Origin: Promethearchaeota archaeon | GTDB taxonomy: Archaea; Asgardarchaeota; Lokiarchaeia; Sigyniarchaeales; SOKP01 | DNA: 64,000 bases | Direction of reading: 5' to 3' | NCBI GenBank assembly: GCA_048941015.1 | Contig: JBHLNZ010000001.1 | Coordinates: 32,001-96,000 of the forward strand | Part shown: piece by piece, positions 5,568-48,378 of the stretch | Position numbering within the stretch: the first letter of the stretch is position 1 | Layout: every line of letters starts with the position of its first letter | Notes under the pieces: model-generated | Databases searched by the model: none | Told to the model about the DNA's origin: nothing | Seen by the model: only the letters and a program-made list of their open reading frames with translations | Made by a program: the position numbers and the translations under genes

Positions 5568-6830
5568 CTAAGCTGCTTTAAAGGTCTTTGGATTATCCTC
5601 TTCTATTATATAGTCCAATTTGTGAATATCTGAAAATATCCAGATCAAAATAGCAATAATTATAGCAATTAATATGTTTATAAGGTATACTGCTTTAAGG
5701 TTGATCAGTTCTGCTAAAAATCCTCCTGTTAATGAGCCTAAAGGTATAATCGCAAATGTTATTGAATGATCTAAAGAGACGATTCTCCCAACTTTATCCT
5801 TAGGAACAGCAATTTGTAAAATAGTCATATAATTAATCAATATAAAATTAAATGAAAGTCCTGAAATAAATAGTCCAATTCCCACAATTATAAAAAATCT
5901 ATACGGAGAAAAAACCAGAAAAGAGTATCCACCAAATATAGAAATACTTCCAATCATTATAATCAATGTTTTCCGTTTCCATTCTTTCTTAAATGAATTA
6001 ATAAAACTTCCAACAATATTTCCTACTGACATAAAAGAACTAATAAATGCTAATTCAATGGCAGTTCCATTATGAATCTTTTTAACAAATAGTGGTAACA
6101 AATCTGAGAATGGGCGGTTTAAAAAGTTTAATAACATCGCTAAAAAAATTAAACTCAATAAACCTGGAGCAGATTTTACAGCTTTTAATCCTATTTTAAA
6201 TTCTTTAAAAAATGAAGTTTTTTCTTTATGATCTTTTGGTAATCCTACTCTAGGAATTGTAATAATCAAGATAGGAACTAATGCAATTATAAAAGTTATA
6301 ATATCTATCATAAAAATTTGATTGATTGGAAAAAATTCGTAAAGTGCTCCTGCTAAAATTGGACCAATGGTATAAATCAAACTTGAAAAAAATAAGTTTA
6401 TTGAATTAACCCTATTTAATCTCTGTTTTGGAACCATAGAAGGGATAATTGCATTAAAGGTGGGAACGTGAAAAGATTGAAGAACGCTGCGGCTGGTATT
6501 GACAATTAAAACAAGCCAAATGTCAGCAAGATTAAACGTAAATAATATAAATAATCCAAAAGTAACAACCGCTTGAAATGAATCAACTAATATAATGATA
6601 AACTTCCGACTTATTTTATCTGATAAAACTCCCGCAATCGGAGCAATAATTATTTGGGGTAGGAAATATAATACTGATGAAATTGCAAGATAAAAAGCAC
6701 TATCGGTCTCAACAGCAATCCACCAACTAATTATAAAATATACTATTGAAGAACCTAATAATGAAAATTCTTGTCCCAAAAGAAAATAATAGAAATTTCT
6801 ATAGGTTTTTCGATCTTCCACTTTTATCAC
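5568..6830 (-). CDS. MFS transporter (DHA3/MefA-like)
   Basis: GQEFSLLGS, AGVLSDKISRK, ~12 TM. Confidence 0.88.
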   Translation of the reverse strand: MIKVEDRKTYRNFYYFLLGQEFSLLGSSIVYFIISWWIAVETDSAFYLAISSVLYFLPQIIIAPIAGVLSDKISRKFIIILVDSFQAVVTFGLFILFTFNLADIWLVLIVNTSRSVLQSFHVPTFNAIIPSMVPKQRLNRVNSINLFFSSLIYTIGPILAGALYEFFPINQIFMIDIITFIIALVPILIITIPRVGLPKDHKEKTSFFKEFKIGLKAVKSAPGLLSLIFLAMLLNFLNRPFSDLLPLFVKKIHNGTAIELAFISSFMSVGNIVGSFINSFKKEWKRKTLIIMIGSISIFGGYSFLVFSPYRFFIIVGIGLFISGLSFNFILINYMTILQIAVPKDKVGRIVSLDHSITFAIIPLGSLTGGFLAELINLKAVYLINILIAIIIAILIWIFSDIHKLDYIIEEDNPKTFKAA

Positions 6831-6874
6831 AGTTTCAAATTTTCAAAATTTTATTAAATTACCGAATAAAAAAG

Positions 6875-8164
6875 TTATAATTCTTGATTTTCGAGTTTTA
6901 TTACTTCTTGCTTTGTAATCGGCTCGAAAGTTAGGTTTTCGATGCAATCTAAATATCTAATTTTTGTAAAGTACCAGATTATTATAGGATTAATAATTCC
7001 TGCTAATGAACATATAAAGAATAATGGAATAACTCCAATTAGTTCTGCAGCAGGACCTGTAATTAAAGCGCCAATTGGTGCAATTGCCATTGAAATTGTA
7101 TGGTCAATGGACATTACCCTTCCAATTTTATCAGATGGAACAATAGTATGAAAGATCGTTAAATATGTAGCTACTGTAATTGGGAATATTATGGCTCCCA
7201 AAAACCCGCCAATATACATAAGATAAAAGTTTCGATATGGAGCAAAAATTATTAGAAAATAAGCAGTAAATAGAAACATTTCTCCGGCAAGATTTATCTT
7301 TATCTTATTTTTCCAATTTTTTTTAAACGAGGTTATTAATGAACCAAGGACATTACCAATTTGCATTGAGCCAAAAAGAAAAGCTAGGTTAAAAGCTGTA
7401 CCATCATGGATAATCTTTATATAATAAGGCCATAAGACGTTAAAAGGGCGAAATATAAAATTAAAGATCATCGCAAATATTATTAAACTTAACATGCCTG
7501 GAATAGCTTTAACAATTAAGAAACCCTCTTTTAATTCACGAGAAAATGATCTTTTCTTAATAAACTCTATTTCCTTTTTTTGGTATGGAATTTTAATTAA
7601 AATTAATGGTATAAGAGCTATTGCAAAAGTTATTACATCAATTAAACAAATGTAAGAGATTGGAAACAACTCCAAAAGAATAGCTGATAAAACAGGGCCA
7701 ATCATGAAAATTATTCCATTAAAAAGAAAATTAGTACCATTTATTCTACTTAGTTTATCTTTGGGGACCATTGAAGGAATAATTGCTTGAAATGTAGGGA
7801 CGTGAACCGCAAAAAGAATATTTCGAAAAGTGTGTATCGTTAAAATTAACCAAATATTAATTATGCCAACAAAAAACAATAAAAATAACAAAAAAGTTAA
7901 AAAAGCTTGAAGAGAATCAACTACAGCGATAATTAACTTTCGGTTTAATCTATCAGATAATACTCCGGCAAAAGGGGCAACAATTACTTGAGGTAAAAAT
8001 ATCAAAAAAGAAGCAATTGAAAGATACAAAACGCTTCCTGTCTCAATTGTAATCCACCATGTGATTACAAATCCAATGATACCCGAGCCTAACAATGAAA
8101 ATTGTTGGCCAAACATAAAATAAAGGTAATGAGTAAAGCTTTTGTTTGTTGGTAACTCTTCCAT
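6875..8164 (-). CDS. MFS transporter (DHA3/MefA-like), tandem paralog
   Basis: GQQFSLLGS, AGVLSDRLNRK, ~12 TM. Confidence 0.88.
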   Translation of the reverse strand: MEELPTNKSFTHYLYFMFGQQFSLLGSGIIGFVITWWITIETGSVLYLSIASFLIFLPQVIVAPFAGVLSDRLNRKLIIAVVDSLQAFLTFLLFLLFFVGIINIWLILTIHTFRNILFAVHVPTFQAIIPSMVPKDKLSRINGTNFLFNGIIFMIGPVLSAILLELFPISYICLIDVITFAIALIPLILIKIPYQKKEIEFIKKRSFSRELKEGFLIVKAIPGMLSLIIFAMIFNFIFRPFNVLWPYYIKIIHDGTAFNLAFLFGSMQIGNVLGSLITSFKKNWKNKIKINLAGEMFLFTAYFLIIFAPYRNFYLMYIGGFLGAIIFPITVATYLTIFHTIVPSDKIGRVMSIDHTISMAIAPIGALITGPAAELIGVIPLFFICSLAGIINPIIIWYFTKIRYLDCIENLTFEPITKQEVIKLENQEL

Positions 8165-9025: not shown

Positions 9026-9706
9026 TTACCAAATAAGTGGAATTAATTTTTTCTTGGTTCTTTGAGCATATTCTTTATATCCCTCAAGTTCTTTATGAAG
9101 CATTCGATCTTCTAAAATTGTGCGTATCACTATTCCAGCAATACCAAGTGCAGCAGGAATTAATGAAAAAAGAGAACCAAGGGCTAAACAATAAAAGATT
9201 ATAAATAGAATAAATCCTAAATACATTGGATGCCGTACAATTCGATAAGGGCCAGAAGTAATTACTGTATGGCCTCGATCTTTTTGAATCTCCACTGCTT
9301 TTGATAAAAAGGTATTTTCTTTCATAACTAAGAATATTATTACCAATCCCAATGACATTCCTATAAATCCAATTATTTCCACTAAAAGAGGAACACTTGA
9401 CCAACCATATTTCTTTTCAAAACCAGGAATTATAAATGTTGGAAAAAAGCCAAATCCCATGAAAAGCATGACAATCTTATCCCACTTTTCTTTAAATTGT
9501 GGTTTAGCCCTCTTTTGAAGCATCTCGGGGTCATGTTTACTAAAATATAAAATATAGCTCGTAAAGAAGGTAAAAAATATTCCAAGATAAATCCATACTT
9601 CAAGCCAAAAAAAACTTCCAAAAGGGATAAATAACCCTAATCCAAGGAAAGCTGTAACTAATACAACAAGACTAATTAAAATCGGTTTAGATATTTTTTT
9701 AGGCAT
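9026..9706 (-). CDS. Isoprenylcysteine carboxyl methyltransferase / PEMT family membrane protein
   Basis: GPYRIVRHPMYLG motif, EDRML..EL.GY.EY. Confidence 0.88.
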   Translation of the reverse strand: MPKKISKPILISLVVLVTAFLGLGLFIPFGSFFWLEVWIYLGIFFTFFTSYILYFSKHDPEMLQKRAKPQFKEKWDKIVMLFMGFGFFPTFIIPGFEKKYGWSSVPLLVEIIGFIGMSLGLVIIFLVMKENTFLSKAVEIQKDRGHTVITSGPYRIVRHPMYLGFILFIIFYCLALGSLFSLIPAALGIAGIVIRTILEDRMLHKELEGYKEYAQRTKKKLIPLIW

Positions 9707-9750
9707 AAATACAAGAAATTTTTATCTTATTTAATTTTTCTAATCTTTTT

Positions 9751-10791
9751 TTAGATATTTCGTAATCTTGGATCTAGTGCATCCCTTAATCCATCGCCCA
9801 AAAGCATAAATCCAAGAACTGTAATTAATATCATCAATCCCGGCCAGAACACTGCCCAAGGTGCGTCAAATAAACGAGCCATAGAAATCCAAATTTCCTT
9901 TCCCCAATCTATTAACCCTGGATCAGTAAAACCAAGAAATGCTAAGCCTGCTAAGTTTAAAATAACTGATCCAATGTCAAAAGTCACCGAAATTATAATT
10001 GGATTAATAACATTAGGAATTATATGTTTAAACATTATTCTACGGTTGTTAGCACCGACAACTTTAGCTGCTTGTACATATGGCAATTCTTTTGCTTGTA
10101 GGACCGAAGCTCTGATTAATCTTGCATAAGATGGTACTCCTATTATACCAAAAGCGAACATAAAAGCTTCAATTCTTTGTCCTATTATTGCTACAAACAC
10201 TAACGCAAGAATCAAACCTGGAAAGGAAAGAAGTACATCCATTATTCTCATCAAGATCAAATCTAACCAACTACCAAAATATCCTGCCATAGTACCAAGT
10301 AAGATTCCTACTATTACACTAAAACCAACAGCAGGAAATGCTATTACTAATGAAGCCCTTGCCCCATAAATTATTCTTGACAAAACGTCTCTTCCTAAAC
10401 TAGTAGTACCTAATAGATGTTCTGGAGATGGTGGTTCATATGAACCTAAAAACATTCCCATAGTTTGGCTTTCAAAACTATAAGGAGCAATCCATTGGCC
10501 AAAAATCGCAAAGGTAATTACCACAAAGATAATAATTATTCCAACTAAAGTTAAAAATGATTTCAGTCGCCGAATAAATTTCCGCTTACTAATCGTTTTT
10601 TCATATTCAAACTCTCTTTTTGACAATTCTTCTAATCGAGAACCCGGCACAAATAAGAATTTTATGTTTTTAAAAATCCATCGCAAGATAATTATTAATG
10701 TATTCTGCTTTTCCTCTTCCTCTCTCGACTCCTCTGTTTCGATCTCCTTAAATTCAATAGTTTCTTCTAATTCCGTCATTTCTTTAACCAA
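9751..10791 (-). CDS. oppC: Dipeptide/oligopeptide ABC transporter permease (OppC/DppC), orphan
   Basis: HLLGTTSLGRDVLSRIIYGAR, YVQAAKVVGA (EAA loop), GDGLRDALDPR. Confidence 0.92.
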   Translation of the reverse strand: MVKEMTELEETIEFKEIETEESREEEEKQNTLIIILRWIFKNIKFLFVPGSRLEELSKREFEYEKTISKRKFIRRLKSFLTLVGIIIIFVVITFAIFGQWIAPYSFESQTMGMFLGSYEPPSPEHLLGTTSLGRDVLSRIIYGARASLVIAFPAVGFSVIVGILLGTMAGYFGSWLDLILMRIMDVLLSFPGLILALVFVAIIGQRIEAFMFAFGIIGVPSYARLIRASVLQAKELPYVQAAKVVGANNRRIMFKHIIPNVINPIIISVTFDIGSVILNLAGLAFLGFTDPGLIDWGKEIWISMARLFDAPWAVFWPGLMILITVLGFMLLGDGLRDALDPRLRNI

Positions 10792-10809: not shown

Positions 10810-11472
10810 TTAGAATGTGAAAATCACGTCAAAGGGAAATTTATCAAAATTTTTTTCTAAGGTTCTTTTAAATCCCTCTGAAATTGGCTCAAATCCTTTT
10901 CCAATATAATTTCCAATTGAAATATAATCAGGTTTTATGTCTAAAAGAAAATTCTTTAAACTTTTTAAGTTATCAACATTATCATTAATCCCCCTAAAAA
11001 ACATTATATAAATTCCTAAATGACCTTTGTAAGTCCTCTTGAATCTGACCATCCCGTCTAATAACTCTTCTAAACTTAAATCAACACAACAAGGATTCAC
11101 CCTTCCAAAATTTGAAGGCTCGATACTATTAATATTAACTGCTATGAAATCACATTCTAACAATCCTTTTTGCGCTAATTTATTACATAATATGGAGCAA
11201 TTTACATACGTCCCAATTTTTTGATTTGGGTGAGCTTTCTTAATAAGATTGATTAAAAATTTTAATCCATGGAATATATATTGATCATTTGGAATTCTCA
11301 ACCATATATAGTCAGGACTTCCATTTTGGAATAAAAAATGATTTACTTCTCCAATGATTTCCTCGGTAGGAAAATCTTTTACTGAGATTGACTTCAGCGA
11401 ATCAAAATGAATTGGCATTATTATACCAAATCGCTTGTCATGCTGAATTTCATTAATATATTTATATTCCAT
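10810..11472 (-). CDS. Degenerate radical-SAM-like barrel protein lacking CxxxCxxC
   Basis: YVNCSIL, FGRVNP, MFFRGINDN, IKPDYI resemble the C-terminal part of small Fe-S oxidoreductase radical SAM proteins; no cluster motif. Confidence 0.5.
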   Translation of the reverse strand: MEYKYINEIQHDKRFGIIMPIHFDSLKSISVKDFPTEEIIGEVNHFLFQNGSPDYIWLRIPNDQYIFHGLKFLINLIKKAHPNQKIGTYVNCSILCNKLAQKGLLECDFIAVNINSIEPSNFGRVNPCCVDLSLEELLDGMVRFKRTYKGHLGIYIMFFRGINDNVDNLKSLKNFLLDIKPDYISIGNYIGKGFEPISEGFKRTLEKNFDKFPFDVIFTF

Positions 11473-11512: not shown

Positions 11513-14449
11513 CTAATCCTCGCTTACATCTTTAAAAAGTAGTCTTTCTGAAGGCAATTTCTTAGATTTTATCTTATCTATCCTTTCAAAACATTGTTTT
11601 GCTTTCTCATCATTACCTAGTGCCTGATAAGTTCTTCCCAGCTTTCTATATGTATCAAATACATACCATCCTGTAGGATTTAATTCTAAAGCCGTCTTGA
11701 ATTCTTTGATTGCTTCTTCATATCGCCTAGCCCACATTAAAACTTCTCCATACGTATCGTGATAATTACCAACATCTTGACCAATAGTAACTAACTTTTT
11801 ACCTGTTTCTAATGCTTCCTCTATTCTATTAAGCCTTCCTAAGAAAATTGTTTTATTATTAAGCATATCAAATTCATCGGGGTACTTATCGAGTGCAGTT
11901 TCACAAACTTCCAATCCTAAATCATCCTCACTAATCTCATATGCAATTAAGGATTTAAGTTTAAGAAGAGTTATCTCTTCCTTAGGAAATTCCAATATTA
12001 GTTTATCTAGTAGCATTAAAGATTCATTTGGTTGTTCGGATGAAAAAAGAAGCCAACATTTGTGCCTTTTGTAATCTAGAAGTATAGGTACTAATTCAAT
12101 CGCTTTATCGATCGCTTTTATTGATTCTTCATGCATTCCTATTTGTTCCATTACCATTGATTTTAGGTCATAATATCTCGCTTGATTTAGCTTATTTTGA
12201 TCCAATGATATAGTCATATCAATCTCGGTAAGAAATTTATCTGGTTTTATTTGTGCTTCACTGAAATTGTAGATAAGATCGTAACCATTAACTAAAGCTC
12301 CTGCTAAAGTTGCGATCGGATGATTTGAATGGCGATCTTGAACAGATCTAGCTACTTCTAAGGCTTTATTGAACTTCCCTTGCGTTAAATAAGAATAAAT
12401 TAAGATGAATGATACGGAAGTCTCCAATTTCGGATTCTTATCAAAAAGATTAATAATAATATCTTTTTTTATTATTCTCTTTGCCTCTTTATACCTATGG
12501 ATTATGCTGAGTAAAATTGCTTTTAGAATATAAAACTGTTTATCCTTAGGATTTAATTTGATTATTTTATCTATTAGTTCAAAATCTTCTTCATGAGATA
12601 TAACGCAACATTTCCTATTATACATTATAAAAATAATTTTTGTTTTTAATGCTAAAAGATTCTGTGAATCGCTTTTTAATATATTATCAACAATTTTAAC
12701 TGCTTTTTCATAATCGCCTTTATAAAGCAAGATATATGCTTTTTCGCATAATAATGAGGGATTACTTGCTATTTCCAAGCCTTCATCAATAATATAATCC
12801 GCCTCATCAAATTCTAATAAATAAAACAACGTAATTGATTTCAAAAGATAACCAATATACACTTCAGGATATTTCCTAATAAGTTCTTCTGATAATCTAA
12901 TTGCCTCTATTAAATCAAAAGAATTTGTTGCTACAAGATCTCTTACGATTAAATCTTCTAAATCATTAAACTTCTCTTTATTTTTATTATAAACAGATTT
13001 AATTTTCGATTTTTTACCCTTTAAGAGTAATTCATTTATTTCGTCAAAAATGTCTGCATTTTCATGATTATATAATTTCTTGAATTCAATGGTTGTCAAA
13101 AAATCTGATTTGGTTAATTGCATCACATCTAATGCTTTAAAAATTGAATCATCTATACTATAGTAATATTCATCTTCCATTGATTCTTGTTTTATTATCG
13201 AAGGTTCAAATGATTGAAACTCCTCAAATATATTCTGCCATATAAACCCTTCTCTTTTAGCATCATCTGAAATTAATTTCTTTTCTGTTCCAATTTTATA
13301 AGCGAGATATTTAATATATTCGGGTAAAAATTTTCGCAATGAATCTTTTAATTCATTAACAAAAATATTTTCACATATTTCATTAATAATGTTGTTTAAA
13401 AGGCTAGAAACATTAAATCTTGAACTTATTTCTCTCTCATAACCTGCTAATTTATTTAAGTATGTATATTTTGTAATATAATCATCAATAATTGCTCTTA
13501 ATATACGTTCTAACTTTTCATTTGCTTGAAAATAAAATTCTTTATCAGGAAATACGTCTAATCTGAAAAATTTCACAGGGTACAAATCCTCATCTACTAT
13601 TTTCTCGATAAAGAAATCAAGGGTAGTTTGTTTAATATTATACTTCTTTGCAAACGCCTGAGGAGAAACATACTCTGGATATTGATCTGGATGATTAATT
13701 GAAAGAAATAATAAGATCTTATTGAAATCCTCCTCTTCTTCTAACATATTTTCTACTTTTGAATAACTCATCTTTAGAGTATTGTTTAAAAATCGAAATT
13801 TGATATTATCATCTATAATGTCATATTTATCGTAGAAATCATTTGTATACATGGTTATTTCTTCTATTCGCTTGCTTTCCTCCTCCAAAATTGATTGGCG
13901 ATCTAGATCATAGGTTTTCAGCATCCTAAAGTACTCTACTTTACCAGTAGAAGTTATATAATATTCTTTATTCTCGTTCTTAATGAAACCCTTATCAATC
14001 AAAAAATTTTTACTCTTGGATAATGAGGATTGATTAATACCTAATGGTGGCTCTCGAAAATCGGACCATTTGCAGGATTCATTATTATATAACATCCATA
14101 AAATCCAATGATCATAATTCCTCTTTCTCAAAATTGCTTTTGGAGGATATACTAATTTCGGTCTTCCCAATTCCTCATCATAGGAAATCTCATTAAAATG
14201 GGATCTACCTTCAGTTGTTATCCTATAATGTCCCCTTTTAAATCTATCAATATAATCTTTATTAATTAGATCATTGATATAATTTGAAAGAGTTGATTCA
14301 CTGATCTCTGATTCTTCTGTAAAATCCCGCCATTCGCAATATTCATTATTAGAAAGCATCCAAAGAATTATATATTCATAATTTGGATTTGTTCCAGGAG
14401 GAGATAATATCTCTTTTGGGGGTAAAATTAAATTTTTTGAGCTGCTCAT
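11513..14449 (-). CDS. Tandem winged-helix + TPR-repeat protein (putative transcriptional regulator / peptide receptor), copy 1
   Basis: Two internal repeats NY(E/D)x(I/W)ILWMLxNNExCxWxDF..S(T/S)LS..L..K..I....Y.IT..G; C-terminal TPRs (e.g. YHDTYGEVLMWARRYEEAIKEFKTALELNP); paralog at 45186-47681. Confidence 0.85.
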   Translation of the reverse strand: MSSSKNLILPPKEILSPPGTNPNYEYIILWMLSNNEYCEWRDFTEESEISESTLSNYINDLINKDYIDRFKRGHYRITTEGRSHFNEISYDEELGRPKLVYPPKAILRKRNYDHWILWMLYNNESCKWSDFREPPLGINQSSLSKSKNFLIDKGFIKNENKEYYITSTGKVEYFRMLKTYDLDRQSILEEESKRIEEITMYTNDFYDKYDIIDDNIKFRFLNNTLKMSYSKVENMLEEEEDFNKILLFLSINHPDQYPEYVSPQAFAKKYNIKQTTLDFFIEKIVDEDLYPVKFFRLDVFPDKEFYFQANEKLERILRAIIDDYITKYTYLNKLAGYEREISSRFNVSSLLNNIINEICENIFVNELKDSLRKFLPEYIKYLAYKIGTEKKLISDDAKREGFIWQNIFEEFQSFEPSIIKQESMEDEYYYSIDDSIFKALDVMQLTKSDFLTTIEFKKLYNHENADIFDEINELLLKGKKSKIKSVYNKNKEKFNDLEDLIVRDLVATNSFDLIEAIRLSEELIRKYPEVYIGYLLKSITLFYLLEFDEADYIIDEGLEIASNPSLLCEKAYILLYKGDYEKAVKIVDNILKSDSQNLLALKTKIIFIMYNRKCCVISHEEDFELIDKIIKLNPKDKQFYILKAILLSIIHRYKEAKRIIKKDIIINLFDKNPKLETSVSFILIYSYLTQGKFNKALEVARSVQDRHSNHPIATLAGALVNGYDLIYNFSEAQIKPDKFLTEIDMTISLDQNKLNQARYYDLKSMVMEQIGMHEESIKAIDKAIELVPILLDYKRHKCWLLFSSEQPNESLMLLDKLILEFPKEEITLLKLKSLIAYEISEDDLGLEVCETALDKYPDEFDMLNNKTIFLGRLNRIEEALETGKKLVTIGQDVGNYHDTYGEVLMWARRYEEAIKEFKTALELNPTGWYVFDTYRKLGRTYQALGNDEKAKQCFERIDKIKSKKLPSERLLFKDVSED

Positions 14450-14497
14450 TTTTTAAAATTCCTCTTGTAACTTCATTTAACTCCTATAATAACGTAT

Positions 14498-14596
14498 AGT
14501 TCGAAGTTATATTTATACTTTACACTTCGAAATAAAGTATGAACCATTGCCGAAGTTCAAACTTCACTGCGAAGTTCGAAGTACAAACCTATAAAT
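14498..14596. promoter_or_regulatory. Divergent promoter region with repeated GAAGT/ACTTC operator-like sites and TATA box
   Basis: AGTTCGAAGT at 14498 and 14573, ACTTCGAA 14524, palindrome GAAGTTcaAACTTC 14552-14565, TATAAAT 14590-14596. Confidence 0.6.
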
Positions 14597-14678: not shown

Positions 14679-14918
14679 ATGGCACAAGTAGAATTAAGAA
14701 AAGTTGAGCCAAAAAAATGTGTTGATATAGAATTAATAAAATTAGATGAACTCCCTGTTCCCGAAGTCATAGAAGAAAAGGAAGAGGAGATTATAAAGAA
14801 AAAAGGATTGAAAGGCATTATAAATAAATTTCGTAATCATGCCAAATATCATGAAGAATTCATAAATATTGAAAAAGTTAAACGTCAATTAATTTATAGG
14901 AACTTTGGAGTTAATTAA
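14679..14918 (+). CDS. Small protein (79 aa), CVDIE...YRNFG family, copy 1
   Basis: GAGGT at 14666-14670; shares CVDIE and NIxxVKxQxxYRNFG with 47857-48132. Confidence 0.85.
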   Translation: MAQVELRKVEPKKCVDIELIKLDELPVPEVIEEKEEEIIKKKGLKGIINKFRNHAKYHEEFINIEKVKRQLIYRNFGVN

Positions 14919-14960: not shown

Positions 14961-15044
14961 ATGAGTTTAAAAGAAAAAATAAAGGTATGGGTTTGTAGAC
15001 ACTTCTGTTCTGCGTCATGCCGAGCGGAAATCTGCGCTGAATGA
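14961..15044 (+). CDS. 27-aa Cys-rich peptide MSLKEKIKVWVCRHFCSASCRAEICAE
   Basis: Manual translation; inside the small-ORF operon; GC-rich relative to flanks; Cx3Cx3Cx4C. Confidence 0.55.
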   Translation: MSLKEKIKVWVCRHFCSASCRAEICAE

Positions 15045-15082: not shown

Positions 15083-15148
15083 ATGGCAAGAAAAGAAAGA
15101 TTGATAATAATTAGAAATGATGAGTTTAACTCGAGATATTTTAGATAA
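15083..15148 (+). CDS. 21-aa peptide MARKERLIIIRNDEFNSRYFR (conserved peptide family)
   Basis: GAGGT at 15069-15073; ungapped similarity to peptides at 15206 and 48177. Confidence 0.8.
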   Translation: MARKERLIIIRNDEFNSRYFR

Positions 15149-15205
15149 TTAATTTCAAAATATAAAAATATATTCAAAATAAAAATTAAAAAGAGGTAGA
15201 AGGAA

Positions 15206-15274
15206 ATGAACGAGAAAAAAAGAATAATTGTGTTAAAAAACGCGAGCTATAACGTAAAATATTTCAAATGGTAA
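15206..15274 (+). CDS. 22-aa peptide MNEKKRIIVLKNASYNVKYFKW (conserved peptide family)
   Basis: GAGGT at 15193-15197; ungapped similarity to peptides at 15083 and 48177; followed by T-tract. Confidence 0.82.
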   Translation: MNEKKRIIVLKNASYNVKYFKW

Positions 15275-15298: not shown

Positions 15299-15317
15299 AA
15301 GACGTATTAAACAAATC

Positions 15318-15406
15318 CTCCAATTTGTTTGAAGCTTTCCGTACAATCACTTAATAGGATGATACCCACGCACCTGGGCAGACGAGTGCTCAGGTGCATT
15401 CCATCC
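15318..15406 (+). ncRNA. Conserved structured non-coding element, copy 1 (function unknown)
   Basis: 54/64 nt ungapped identity to 48283-48346; stem GCACCTGGGCA/TGCTCAGGTGC with a G-U pair; outer GGATG/CATCC. Confidence 0.6.
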
Positions 15407-15652
15407 ATCAACAATTAATGCAACCATAATTTCATAAAATTCTGATCATTTATGACTCCTGCAGCCGTCTTCTTTGTTGGAATAATCATCCCAAATCTGT
15501 TAATAGTCTTAATAGATGGGTTTGGTGGAGTCATCTTTTAAAATAAACATAAATTTTTTAGAGTTGTTTTTTCCTTTTTTCGATTTTTTTTTTAAATATA
15601 TACGATAAAACCAGACTATATTTCCTGAACTATTTATTAAAGGTTAATTAAG

Positions 15653-43992: not shown

Positions 43993-44898
43993 TTAATAAA
44001 TATTATTTCTATCATTTTCTAGGCATTCACGAACTTTTACTAGAAAGCTACGTTTATTATATTCTAATTCAGTTTCAGGAAAAGCTAATAGACTCCAGTA
44101 ATACGCGAGAATCTCTTCTGGATGCAGTCTATGTTGATTATTATAGGGATCAATTTCTTCACATAAATCATATAATGCTTGAGGGGCATTAATGAATTTA
44201 GGTTGACTATTTTTGTATACGGGATAACAGATACTGTCTTTCAATTGAATAGTAAGAAAGCAAAATCGGAAGTATCGAAAGAAATACCCACCTTTATATG
44301 GTTGTTCTGAATAAAGAAATGGAGCTGCTTTTGTTTCACTCCCATTAAAATCTCTGAATTCTACATAGCAATTTTTTTTAACTGTATCAGGATTAGTAAC
44401 ATATAATTCTCGATACTCTTCTGGCATTTTTAATTCGGGACATGAAGTAAACCCCAATTTGGCATACAGATTATTTCTAAATTTGGGATAAAATGTACTT
44501 ATTATATGAAAAAGTTCATGTGTGATTAATTCTTTTAATTCATTGTAAGGCCAGCGAATCATTGAATTTGGCATATAAATACAACTCTTTCTGGTATATG
44601 CAGCATCACCTTCATCTAATCCTGTAGTTTTTATTAGCAGAATCTCAGCTGGTAAGATCTTTTGATATTGCTTATAAGCATTTTCAATCTCTTCAAAAAT
44701 TTTTTCGATTCTATCTTTCTCAATTTGAGTCCAATCAATAGTTTGCTGGGACAGAAATGTGATTAAATCCTCTTTTGATACTTCTTCCGAAGTTCCTAAT
44801 CGGGATTGTAAATCAAATTTACTAAAATTAGCGATATAATCATCTTTTTGAGCAATTAGTTTCGAACCTGGAATACTATCAATTAATTTAACTTTCAA
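43993..44898 (-). CDS. Putative zincin-type metallopeptidase
   Basis: AAYTR, HELFH (HExxH), NPD, HPEEILA. Confidence 0.65.
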   Translation of the reverse strand: MKVKLIDSIPGSKLIAQKDDYIANFSKFDLQSRLGTSEEVSKEDLITFLSQQTIDWTQIEKDRIEKIFEEIENAYKQYQKILPAEILLIKTTGLDEGDAAYTRKSCIYMPNSMIRWPYNELKELITHELFHIISTFYPKFRNNLYAKLGFTSCPELKMPEEYRELYVTNPDTVKKNCYVEFRDFNGSETKAAPFLYSEQPYKGGYFFRYFRFCFLTIQLKDSICYPVYKNSQPKFINAPQALYDLCEEIDPYNNQHRLHPEEILAYYWSLLAFPETELEYNKRSFLVKVRECLENDRNNIY

Positions 44899-45081: not shown

Positions 45082-45155
45082 GGGGTGGTAGTCCAGCTTG
45101 GTAGGATTCTTGGTTCGGGATCAAGAGGTCGAGGGTTCAAGTCCCTCCTACCCCA
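45082..45155 (+). tRNA. trnP: tRNA-Pro (anticodon CGG), intronless, CCA not encoded
   Basis: Acceptor GGGGTGG/CTACCCC + A; anticodon arm CTTGG-TTCGGGA-TCAAG; T arm GAGGG-TTCAAGT-CCCTC. Confidence 0.95.
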
Positions 45156-45185: not shown

Positions 45186-47681
45186 TTATTCTAAAAACTC
45201 CTTAACTTCGATTATACTGTTCCTTGCTCTTTCTTTCCATTCATCCATATTCTCAAAATCACAGATACATCTCGCTGCGTGATCTAAGCCCTTCTCATAA
45301 CTCTCTTTTGCTTTTTCATACTCTTCAAGGGCTCTATAAGCATCTCCCATCTTGATAGCAGTTTGATAGCAGTACCATCCATTAGGCTCTATTTCCATAG
45401 CTTTCTGGAATTCTTGGATTGCTTGTTTGTATTTTCCAAACCATAACAAGATTTCACCATATGAATCATGATAATTTCCCTCATCAGGAGCAATTTCTAT
45501 TAATTTCTTACCGATCTCAATTGCTTCTTCTTTTTGGTTTAATTTTCCAAGTTCGTACAATTTACTATTGAAAAGTTCTGGATCAGAGGGTTCTTTTTCC
45601 AATAATTCATTAGTGATCTTTAGACTTTCACTATAATCTCCCATCCAATAGAGAAATGAAGACTTCTTTTGTAAAATCTTCTTTTCCTGATCTGGAAATT
45701 GTTTTAACAATTCATCCGTTAATCTAATTACCCCTTCAAAATCTTTTTCAAATTTCATTAATATTTTTATTTTCGAGAAATACAACCAAAGACTTTTTGG
45801 TTTTAAATTATTGATCTCATTTGTTTCTTCAAGCGCTTCTTGATATCTTTTTAATTCTTGTAATACAAAGCTCTTTAATTGATGGATAAGGGCTTTATTA
45901 GTATTATCAGTTTCTAATGAAATAGCTTTATCGGTAACGCTCAAGAAATCCTTATCTATATCCGACTTTCCTTTCTCAAAGTTATAAATTAAATTATATC
46001 CATGAACTAGTGCTTTTGCAAGATATGCTATTGAGTTTTTAGGGTGATCCTGTAGTAACTCATTAGCAACTCTTAATGCTTTCTTAAATTTACCTTGATT
46101 CAAATATATGAATGTAAAAATAAAAGAGCGACTTAGAGCTAACTGAGAATTAACAGAGACGATTGATTGATCAACTCCTTCTTTTAACAATTTTTCGGCT
46201 TCTTTATGTCTATTCAAATAGCAAAGAAGAATTGATTTAAGTATAATTAAATTTTGATTTTCTGCCTCCTTTTGTAGTTCTGATTCAGCTATCTCTAACG
46301 CTTCTTTTAGTTCCCAATCATCAATTAATTCCTGGATTTTGATGATTTGCTTATTCTCAGAAATATAAATCGATTCTAAAATACCTAAAATACTTGGATA
46401 TAAAAAGAAATAAGGATCACTATGATTTATTTGTAAATTTTCAAATTCGTTCATAAATTCTTGTATCGCAATTCCTCTGAGTTTATCATCTGTTTCGATC
46501 AATCTTCTTTGCTTTTCGATTTTATATGCTAAATGTTTGATATATTCTGGTAAAAATCTTTTTAACGCTTCTCTCATCTCTCCATTAAAAATATGATCAC
46601 AGATTTCATTTAATACTTGATTAACAACAATTGAGATATACATAACAGGAGGTTCACTAGAAGTATTATCGTAAAATTCATTTAAGTAAGTGAATTGTGT
46701 AATATAATCATCAACAATAGCTCTTAAAACTCTTTCAATTTTCTCACCAGCTTGGAAATAATAAGTACGCCCCTCATCATCTTCTAATTTGAAGAATTTA
46801 ATGGGAAATATTTTTTCGTCAATAATTTTCATGATAAAAAACTTCAATATCTCTTCTCTAATATTGAATTTTAGACAAAAGTCTTTAGCGGAAATGTAAT
46901 TAGGATACTGATTTGGATGATTAATTGCGATATATAATAAAATCTTGTTAAAATCTTCTTCAGCTATAAAGTTTTCAGATTTAGAATAATCTAATTTTAA
47001 TATATTGTTTAAAAGGCGAAACTTTATACCATTATCATCAATATTATACTTCTCAAAGAATTTACTCATTTTGTCAGTAATCTCTTTTACTCTTTTACGC
47101 TCTTCATCTAAAATAGATTGACGATCTAAATCGTACTCCTTTAAGATTTCAGCATAGGCAATCTTACCAGCATTAGCAATTCTATATTTATTATTCTCTT
47201 TTTTTATCAATCCATCCTCTTGTAAAAAATTCAAATTCTTCGATAATGAAGAATTGTTAATAAAAATTGGATTATCATCTCCTTGAAAATCCGACCATTT
47301 GCAATAATTATTATTATAGCATATCCATAAAATCCAATGGTAATAATTACGTCTTTTTAAGATAGTTTTTGGAGGATAACTTAATTTACGTTTAATTTTT
47401 CTCGATTTTGATAACTGTCTAAACCTTTCTTCACCCTCAGGGGTAATCTGATACTTTCCTCGTTCCTCATTGATGATAAATCCTTTATTTATTAACTTGT
47501 TTCTATAATTTGAGAATGTACTTTGACTAATATTAATTGGATCGTCTAGAAAGTCTGACCATTCACATTCCTCGTTATTAGATAACATCCAAAGAATAAT
47601 ATGTTCATAGTTTTTTCTTTCTGCATCCAGGATTTCTTTTGGTGGATAATTGGTTATTGCTGTTTTACTCACAAAAATCAC
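45186..47681 (-). CDS. Tandem winged-helix + TPR-repeat protein, copy 2
   Basis: NYEHIILWMLSNNEECEWSDF, YPPKTILKRRNYYHWILW, YDLDRQSIL, GNYHDSYGEIL shared with 11513-14449; fewer TPRs. Confidence 0.85.
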   Translation of the reverse strand: MIFVSKTAITNYPPKEILDAERKNYEHIILWMLSNNEECEWSDFLDDPINISQSTFSNYRNKLINKGFIINEERGKYQITPEGEERFRQLSKSRKIKRKLSYPPKTILKRRNYYHWILWICYNNNYCKWSDFQGDDNPIFINNSSLSKNLNFLQEDGLIKKENNKYRIANAGKIAYAEILKEYDLDRQSILDEERKRVKEITDKMSKFFEKYNIDDNGIKFRLLNNILKLDYSKSENFIAEEDFNKILLYIAINHPNQYPNYISAKDFCLKFNIREEILKFFIMKIIDEKIFPIKFFKLEDDEGRTYYFQAGEKIERVLRAIVDDYITQFTYLNEFYDNTSSEPPVMYISIVVNQVLNEICDHIFNGEMREALKRFLPEYIKHLAYKIEKQRRLIETDDKLRGIAIQEFMNEFENLQINHSDPYFFLYPSILGILESIYISENKQIIKIQELIDDWELKEALEIAESELQKEAENQNLIILKSILLCYLNRHKEAEKLLKEGVDQSIVSVNSQLALSRSFIFTFIYLNQGKFKKALRVANELLQDHPKNSIAYLAKALVHGYNLIYNFEKGKSDIDKDFLSVTDKAISLETDNTNKALIHQLKSFVLQELKRYQEALEETNEINNLKPKSLWLYFSKIKILMKFEKDFEGVIRLTDELLKQFPDQEKKILQKKSSFLYWMGDYSESLKITNELLEKEPSDPELFNSKLYELGKLNQKEEAIEIGKKLIEIAPDEGNYHDSYGEILLWFGKYKQAIQEFQKAMEIEPNGWYCYQTAIKMGDAYRALEEYEKAKESYEKGLDHAARCICDFENMDEWKERARNSIIEVKEFLE

Positions 47682-47752: not shown

Positions 47753-47818
47753 TAATGAACTTTCATTAAACTACATAGTTCATCTGAACTATATGTAGAA
47801 TAACTATAAATCGAAGTA
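47753..47818. promoter_or_regulatory. Divergent promoter with inverted-repeat operators and TATA box
   Basis: TAATGAActTTCATTA 47753-47768; ATAGTTCAtcTGAACTAT 47775-47792; TATAAAT 47805-47811; TCGAAGTA 47811-47818. Confidence 0.6.
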
Positions 47819-47856: not shown

Positions 47857-48132
47857 ATGGTAGAAGCAAACTTAAACGGATTAGAAACAAAGAATAATAT
47901 TAATTGTGTAGATATCGAAAAGATAATCAAAGAATGTGTTTCAGAACTACAAGAAGAGAAGGCTAAAGTCTCAGTGATAAAAGATAATAATAAGAGTCGC
48001 TTGGATTCAAAATCAAGATCACTTAGAAGGCAATTAAATAAAAGTAAACATAATAATAAATACATTAACGAATTAAAAAATATAAAATATGTGAAGAGCC
48101 AGGTTCATTACAGGAATTTTGGCACCTATTAA
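47857..48132 (+). CDS. Small protein (91 aa), CVDIE...YRNFG family, copy 2
   Basis: GTGAT RBS at 47847; shared motifs with 14679-14918. Confidence 0.85.
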   Translation: MVEANLNGLETKNNINCVDIEKIIKECVSELQEEKAKVSVIKDNNKSRLDSKSRSLRRQLNKSKHNNKYINELKNIKYVKSQVHYRNFGTY

Positions 48133-48245: not shown

Positions 48246-48282
48246 ATTAAATTTTTTTTCTAATATTTTTATTAAATTTATT

Positions 48283-48378
48283 CTCCAATTTGTGTAAAAC
48301 TTTCCAATCGATCACTTAATAGGATGATACGCACATACCTGGGCAGAGAAGAATGAATGCTCAGGGGCGTATCATCTT
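48283..48378 (+). ncRNA. Conserved structured non-coding element, copy 2 (function unknown)
   Basis: Stems AGGATGATACGC/GCGTATCATCTT and CCTGGGCA/TGCTCAGG; homologous to 15318-15406. Confidence 0.6.

Follow-up and report, generated by a model that had tools for sequence, protein, structure and literature searches.

The window, the 64,000-nucleotide stretch analyzed here of DNA from an Asgard archaeon of the Promethearchaeota, carries three micro-peptide genes that sequence comparison supports as real and that form part of an unannotated and apparently undescribed superfamily. The peptides are carried by two paralogous cassettes, A and B, each with a divergently transcribed gene for a winged-helix TPR protein; no third cassette was found in the genome. 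The three ORFs are the following.

15083 to 15148, plus strand: micro-peptide 1 (locus A), 21 aa, with AGAGGT 9 nt 5′ of the ATG
15206 to 15274, plus strand: micro-peptide 2 (locus A), 22 aa, with AGAGGT 5′ of the ATG and an oligo-T run right after the stop codon
48177 to 48245, plus strand: micro-peptide 3 (locus B), 22 aa, with GAGATGG 5′ of the ATG and an oligo-T run after the stop codon

In locus A as in locus B, the oligo-T run is directly 3′ of the last ORF. The first-pass annotation had proposed these ORFs as one family, and its coordinates, translations, ungapped alignment and invariant residues (M1, R6, I8, N12, N16, Y19, and F20) were borne out. So was the synonymous codon variation: in peptides 1, 2, and 3, respectively, Arg6 is encoded by AGA, AGA, and CGA, Asn12 by AAT, AAC, and AAC, Asn16 by AAC, AAC, and AAT, and Phe20 by TTT, TTC, and TTC. 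The net charges of the three peptides range from +3 to +5.

The source assembly (3.59 Mb, 29% G+C, 144 contigs) was searched as 142,368 stop-to-stop frames. In leave-one-out searches, profiles built on two of the peptides returned the third as the top non-training match, with E values of 1e-4 to 1e-6, and the next match came only at E ≥ 0.013. With an independent profile made from 22 peptides of other genomes, the window peptides ranked 1 to 3 among the same 142,368 frames (E values of 1.7e-5, 7e-4, and 0.014, with micro-peptide 3 as the top match), and the fourth-ranked frame had an E value of 0.46. The leave-one-out recovery and the ranking with the independent profile indicate that the similarity of the three peptides goes beyond chance. 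They are the only family members in the whole assembly, all of them within the window. Their description as unannotated also held, as none of seven family members tested was present in a collection of 15 billion proteins.

The wider peptide family and its coding status

By their profile matches, the window peptides are members of a lineage-specific superfamily of 21 to 32 aa, whose layout comprises a Lys/Arg/Glu-rich start, an aliphatic run closing in Asn, and a tail that varies and is often aromatic. It has dozens of divergent members instead of the three initially recognized. Of the consensus proposed for those three, the R-h-I-h-h-[KR]-N half applies family-wide, whereas the Y-N-x-x-Y-F-[RK] half is confined to one subfamily. 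The nearest relatives of micro-peptide 1 are peptides beside orthologous receptors of ~990 aa, and in the alignment that contains them (A8) the Ile and Asn of the aliphatic half are invariant. When subfamilies are compared, the tail varies and the rest of the peptide, N-terminal and central, is conserved; within ortholog groups, conservation extends over the full length. The peptides are polar and mostly basic, some subfamilies being near neutral or acidic, and their aliphatic run spans 4 to 5 residues. No signal sequence or hydrophobic C-terminal half was found in the family's peptide sequences.

An HMM search with the three peptides, the check that the first-pass annotation had suggested, yielded only weak partial matches in 41 congeners because the family is too divergent, but a broader profile did find homologs. 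As a remedy for this divergence, peptides were harvested from the divergent flanks of orthologous receptor loci, where a 70- to 95-aa ORF is followed by one to three micro-ORFs of 22 to 29 aa in conserved order. An alignment of 25 harvested peptides (A3), used as a profile on 42 genomes of the genus, gave 35 matches in 16 of them. Further homologs with intact frames thus exist, internal stops being present in none of the 35 genus-wide matches. For at least 27 of the 35, a divergent receptor gene starts no more than ~1.1 kb away on the opposite strand, and receptor flanks represent less than 1% of the genome as target space (5 to 15 receptor genes per 3- to 5-Mb genome). More divergent members were found in 78 related loci from other assemblies, with nearly all profile matches at the same receptor-flank position. 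An apparent outlier (L083:11495-11575) fits this pattern, since its contig carries a second receptor gene and the peptide lies about 500 nt upstream of it.

Coding tests were conducted on five ortholog/paralog groups totaling 30 sequences. GAGGT, GGAGG, or a one-base variant of these motifs is found 7 to 10 nt 5′ of the ATG in all 30 members examined. In the best-sampled group, 131, 79, and 246 substitutions were counted at codon positions 1, 2, and 3, respectively, and the corresponding figures were 101/87/125, 148/181/186, 23/21/30, and 34/29/51 in the other groups. The claim of selection at the protein level, initially based on synonymous codons, was strengthened by these analyses, as third-position changes dominate, pN/pS is between 0.44 and 0.68 in the five groups, and members differ in length by whole codons only. 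In aligned arrays, gaps occupy 4% of the ORF columns versus 15% of the spacer columns, and the start and stop positions are preserved over dozens of genomes. If the ORFs were untranslated, their conservation would have to come from RNA or DNA elements or from chance. The fact that ORF columns are barely better conserved than the AT-rich spacers (76% versus 70% identity) would fit such an account, but the ribosome-binding motif at every copy, the restriction of indels to in-frame events, the excess of third-position changes, the scarcity of gaps in the ORFs, and the maintenance of starts and stops make it very improbable. The three ORFs are most probably translated micro-protein genes.

The regulator and its radical-SAM neighbor

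In both cassettes, the order is a minus-strand receptor gene, intergenic palindromes, a plus-strand ORF of 79 or 91 aa, the micro-ORFs, the oligo-T run, and a non-coding block of ~100 nt. The regulator genes, the palindromes, and the genes beyond regulator A are located as follows.

5568 to 8164, minus strand: two tandem MFS_3-type transporters; the copy at 6875 to 8164 matches Pfam MFS_1/MFS_3, and the other copy is 48% identical
10810 to 11472, minus strand: radical-SAM-fold protein without the Fe-S loop, 220 aa, directly downstream of and co-directional with receptor A
11513 to 14449, minus strand: receptor/regulator A, 978 aa, three winged helices and ~14 TPRs
14497 to 14587, no strand assigned: palindromes/repeats AGTTCGAAGT (twice) and GAAGTTCAAACTTC, locus A, 5′ of CTATAAAT
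45186 to 47681, minus strand: receptor/regulator B, 831 aa, a paralog of A with the same Pfam families
47775 to 47792, no strand assigned: palindrome ATAGTTCA-tc-TGAACTAT, locus B, 5′ of CTATAAAT

The palindromes of both cassettes are found just 5′ of the TATA-like box of the operon, CTATAAAT, in the shared promoter region. Receptors A and B are 41% identical in their N-terminal part and 38% in their TPR part. Their Pfam matches are HTH_45, HTH_34, MarR, TrmB, and TPR_1/2, and their NCBIfam matches are Sso10a and Sta1. The AF2 model of receptor A (pLDDT 82) shows winged helices at residues 24 to 89, 112 to 177, and 239 to 308, each a helix-helix-helix-hairpin unit, followed by a helical linker and then ~14 TPRs from 462 to 961. 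Using the whole 978-aa model as a query, the neighbors listed by Foldseek are long TPR solenoids (APC/C subunits, OGT, TTC7, and Tom70), and no RRNPP receptor is among the matches listed. Of 68 genomes sampled from the Promethearchaeota family to which the window belongs, 56 gave a match to the N-terminal half of the receptor, compared with a single one of 233 other genomes of the phylum. The receptor is paralog-expanded, with 3 to 16 matches per genome in the genus. Between these paralogs, the N-terminal halves are 50 to 57% identical and the TPR halves 29 to 38%, and a faster divergence of the TPR half is expected if that half sets specificity. A viral or mobile-element origin was considered and rejected, since no relatives of the receptor were found in the viral contigs of IMG/VR. 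A gap of 31 nt separates the 3′ end of receptor B from a tRNA gene (45082 to 45155, plus strand, Rfam 60 bits), beyond which is a weak DUF5700 peptidase-like ORF (43993 to 44898).

The tight link between the peptides and a TPR protein extends across loci, with a divergent receptor adjoining the peptides. Peptides accompany all four receptor length classes (~990, ~850, ~840, and ~640 aa) and the radical-SAM gene only two, which makes the receptor the constant partner of the peptides.

The 220-aa protein encoded downstream of receptor A matches no Pfam family, and its profile gives a weak match to radical-SAM structures. Its AF2 model (pLDDT 90) is a partial TIM-barrel radical-SAM fold, for which Foldseek returned PFL-activating enzyme, lipoyl synthase (LipA), SuiB (5v1q/5v1t), and NifB with E values of 6e-7 to 3e-5 (6e-7 to 9e-6 for the first three). 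A gene for a 220- to 238-aa protein of this fold follows the receptor in 33 of the 78 related loci. It is associated with two receptor clades, in a canonical form in one and without the Fe-S loop in that of the window. The C-x3-C-x2-C motif is kept in nine homologs, all beside receptors of ~850 aa, and a 12-residue deletion removes exactly this loop in the window copy and in 25 other homologs. With its Fe-S loop deleted and yet intact in 26 genomes, the gene at 10810 to 11472 is a candidate for a pseudo-enzyme or a peptide-binding subunit. No radical-SAM homolog was found at locus B, and no such gene is present within 6 kb of the receptors in the ~640- and ~840-aa clades, which do have peptides. 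A canonical copy at locus L105 matches Pfam Radical_SAM at 1.7e-16; ATC_hydrolase-like, DJ-1/PfpI, and 4Fe-4S ferredoxin-domain genes are found 3′ of it (L105:9299-11826), as well as an MFS_3 transporter gene, a group that looks like a small biosynthetic cluster. MFS_3 homologs are located no more than 6 kb from the receptor in 21 of the 78 related loci, in several clades. Between the cassette and the MFS_3 genes, the window also contains genes for a solitary OppC-type permease and an ICMT/PEMT-family methyltransferase (9026 to 10791, minus strand). Both were rejected as parts of the system, as they are neighbors in 1 and 0 of the 78 loci, respectively.

Possible functions of the cassettes

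The cognate peptides may be sensed by the TPR regulator, in a manner analogous to but not homologous with RRNPP/Rgg-SHP systems, a proposal that we find plausible but short of probable. The peptides are encoded in a short operon that runs divergently from the regulator gene, and the regulator, with its three winged helices and ~14 TPRs, would be a transcription factor. We infer that it recognizes the palindromes of the common promoter region and controls the micro-ORF operon; its TPR domain would sense the peptides encoded alongside, either in their original form or once exported or modified. Each paralogous cassette would then constitute its own peptide-dependent autoregulatory circuit, with the logic of RRNPP/Rgg-SHP evolved independently. 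Export may be possible, given the recurrent MFS_3 exporter-type gene near the cassette in several clades. The absence of a signal sequence, of a hydrophobic half, and of a conserved importer (OppC-type in 1 of 78 loci) speaks against peptide sensing. Furthermore, it is unusual for a pheromone system to have as many as three distinct peptides, fixed in order, for one receptor, and the radical-SAM gene beside the cassette suggests that the peptides are modified instead. Descent of each cassette as a unit is enough to explain the co-variation of peptide and receptor with no contact between them. Prediction of a complex between the orthologous L073 receptor (residues 25 to 986) and its 32-aa peptide ORF gave a score of 0.01 (mark, 0.32), which counts neither way. 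In a more ambitious and rather doubtful version, the cassettes would be Asgard communication or self-sensing modules, with each winged-helix TPR paralog reading its own exported micro-peptide; they would derive, independently of RRNPP, from a radical-SAM peptide-modification cluster, and the enzyme would later have become a catalytically dead peptide-binding subunit.

The linked radical-SAM gene lends weight to a different reading, that the peptides are RiPP precursors. The leader would be the conserved basic/aliphatic half, and the core would be the variable aromatic half, modified by the radical-SAM protein and other enzymes and exported by MFS_3; the winged-helix TPR protein would be a mere cluster regulator or scaffold. 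In RiPP systems, tandem arrays of related precursors with a conserved-then-variable layout are typical, and the micro-ORF arrays resemble this when compared across subfamilies. The frequency of the radical-SAM-fold gene after the receptor (33 of 78 loci), the nine copies that retain the Cys motif, among which that of L105 has a clear Radical_SAM match, and the hydrolase-like, DJ-1/PfpI, ferredoxin-domain, and MFS_3 genes 3′ of it are in line with this reading, as is the presence of the RiPP maturase SuiB and the peptide-binding PFL-activating enzyme among the structural neighbors. Nevertheless, the Fe-S loop of the window enzyme is lost at locus A and the enzyme itself is missing at locus B, and two receptor clades have peptides with no radical-SAM gene within 6 kb. 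The window does not qualify as a radical-SAM RiPP locus because its Cys triad is missing, C-x3-C-x2-C being found only in the paralogous clade of ~850-aa receptors. In addition, no PqqD/RRE family is among the Pfam matches (E ≤ 0.01), the winged helices match DNA-binding families, and the entire peptide is conserved within ortholog groups rather than the N-terminal half alone. We consider it somewhat unlikely that the peptides are RiPP precursors in this sense, but this reading is compatible with sensing, as a pheromone that undergoes modification is a RiPP.

The peptides might also be the regulated output of the cassette, i.e., small effectors such as cationic antimicrobial, archaeocin-like peptides or intracellular modulators, with the TPR domain sensing something else. 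The positive charge of the window peptides and the nearby MFS_3 exporter-type genes would agree with this idea, and in the enzyme-less cassettes, which consist of the regulator and micro-ORFs alone, the micro-ORFs would have to be the payload. However, not all subfamilies are basic, several being acidic or close to neutral, the cassettes show no evident immunity gene, and peptides of 21 to 25 aa with an aliphatic run of just 4 to 5 residues are, to our knowledge, not a typical membrane-active design. An effector function appears unlikely.

HTH-TPR peptide pheromone-receptor circuits have been described for Bacillota and their mobile elements only (PMC12700828). In the literature, we found no peptide-sensing or micro-peptide system for Asgard archaea, nor this peptide family. 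The cassettes provide concrete, sequence-defined candidate ligand/receptor pairs in dozens of paralogous copies, which can be directly tested with synthetic 22-mers and recombinant TPR domain, with no need for culturing. They also show that standard annotation overlooks a whole conserved gene family in these genomes, and they document a candidate radical-SAM pseudo-enzyme, conserved despite the loss of its Fe-S cluster.

By layout, the closest known systems are the RRNPP(A) systems of Bacillota (Rgg/SHP, RopB/leaderless peptides), in which a cytoplasmic HTH and TPR protein is encoded next to a tiny, often divergent peptide gene and which include the LCP class, whose peptide is produced without a leader (PMC12700828, PMC10518010). 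Common to both are the cognate small peptide gene adjoining the receptor and the many paralogous pairs per genome; the 3 to 16 receptor matches per genome are reminiscent of the multiplicity of Bacillota peptide-receptor pairs (PMC7425212). The differences are numerous. Here the DNA-binding part consists of three winged helices in place of the N-terminal XRE-type HTH of these receptors (which Rap lacks altogether), and the TPR part is a canonical solenoid of ~14 repeats whose listed fold neighbors are APC/C, OGT, and TTC7 and no RRNPP receptor. There are up to three peptides per receptor, polar or basic rather than hydrophobic, and the host is archaeal. Neither secretion nor Opp import is evident, an OppC-like neighbor being present in 1 of 78 loci. 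The resemblance to SHP/ComS precursors put forward in the first-pass annotation is limited to size and gene position, as the peptides are polar, mostly basic, and devoid of a hydrophobic C-terminal half. For SHP, ComS, and LCP alike, the size of 21 to 32 aa fits, whereas the hydrophobic C-terminal part containing aromatic residues has no counterpart here.

Other likenesses are more partial. The streptococcal streptide clusters, which are radical-SAM RiPP clusters under shp/rgg control, group an HTH-TPR regulator, short peptide genes, a radical-SAM enzyme, and a transporter, all four of which are shared. In contrast, the enzyme here is a minimal barrel of 220 to 238 aa without RRE or SPASM domains, co-transcribed with the regulator and not with the peptides, and without an Fe-S site in the clade of the window. 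PqqA-type RiPP precursors are ~22 to 24 aa long, with a basic N terminus, a hydrophobic strand, and an aromatic residue near the C terminus. Size and the basic-hydrophobic-aromatic layout are common to both, but the sequences are unrelated, and both a PqqD/PqqE-type partner and the conserved Glu/Tyr pair are missing here. The regulator also resembles peptide-clamping TPR solenoids (APC3 with the IR tail, Tom70/Hop with EEVD, and OGT with its substrates) in its long canonical superhelix, a type of surface that binds extended peptides. Those proteins are eukaryotic scaffolds without DNA-binding domains, whereas the present regulator would combine DNA binding with a putative peptide-binding function.

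Companion ORFs and the conserved non-coding block

The remaining elements of the two cassettes are the following.

14679 to 14918, plus strand: first gene of the divergent operon, locus A, 79 aa; paralog at 47857 to 48132 and 70- to 95-aa counterparts in orthologous loci
14961 to 15044, plus strand: four-Cys micro-ORF, 27 aa, in the locus A array between the 79-aa ORF and the peptides
15309 to 15410, plus strand: conserved non-coding hairpin block, locus A, after the terminator/oligo-T run
47857 to 48132, plus strand: first gene of the divergent operon, locus B, 91 aa, 35% identical to the 79-aa protein
48275 to 48378, plus strand: conserved non-coding hairpin block, locus B, after the oligo-T run

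The two non-coding blocks are 82% identical over 78 nt, and the DNA around them is unalignable. No further copies were found in the rest of the genome or in the related loci. The fold of the block has a GGATG/CATCC stem at its base, then an internal loop, and above it an 8-bp stem that includes a G-U pair on the plus strand; ACA is located 11 to 14 nt past the upper stem, an H/ACA-like geometry. A search of Rfam returned nothing at the gathering threshold, the match to the H/ACA RNA snR85 being at chance level (E value of 0.86). A coding function was rejected, since the two copies do not share their reading frames, which soon run into stops.

The 79-aa protein has no Pfam family above cut-off and is annotated merely as hypothetical. 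The tails of the 79- and 91-aa proteins were considered as a fourth copy of the peptide motif and rejected, as the best E values with the peptide profiles were 0.1 to 0.2. The four-Cys micro-ORF (C-x2-F-C-x3-C-x4-C, 27 to 29 aa) recurs in the same place in at least two other genomes (L080/L004 and L094), the L080 copy being at L080:5158-5238 on the minus strand. Two extra micro-ORF families were observed in the arrays, one zinc-ribbon-like, of 31 to 32 aa (C-x-K-C ... C-x2-C), and the other of 24 to 30 aa with the core L-G-D-[FY] ... N-P-x-K-Y. They were seen upstream of receptors of ~990 aa (L069, L073 to L076, L081, L104, and L067) or ~640 aa (L126, L134, L136, L138, L139, and L113).
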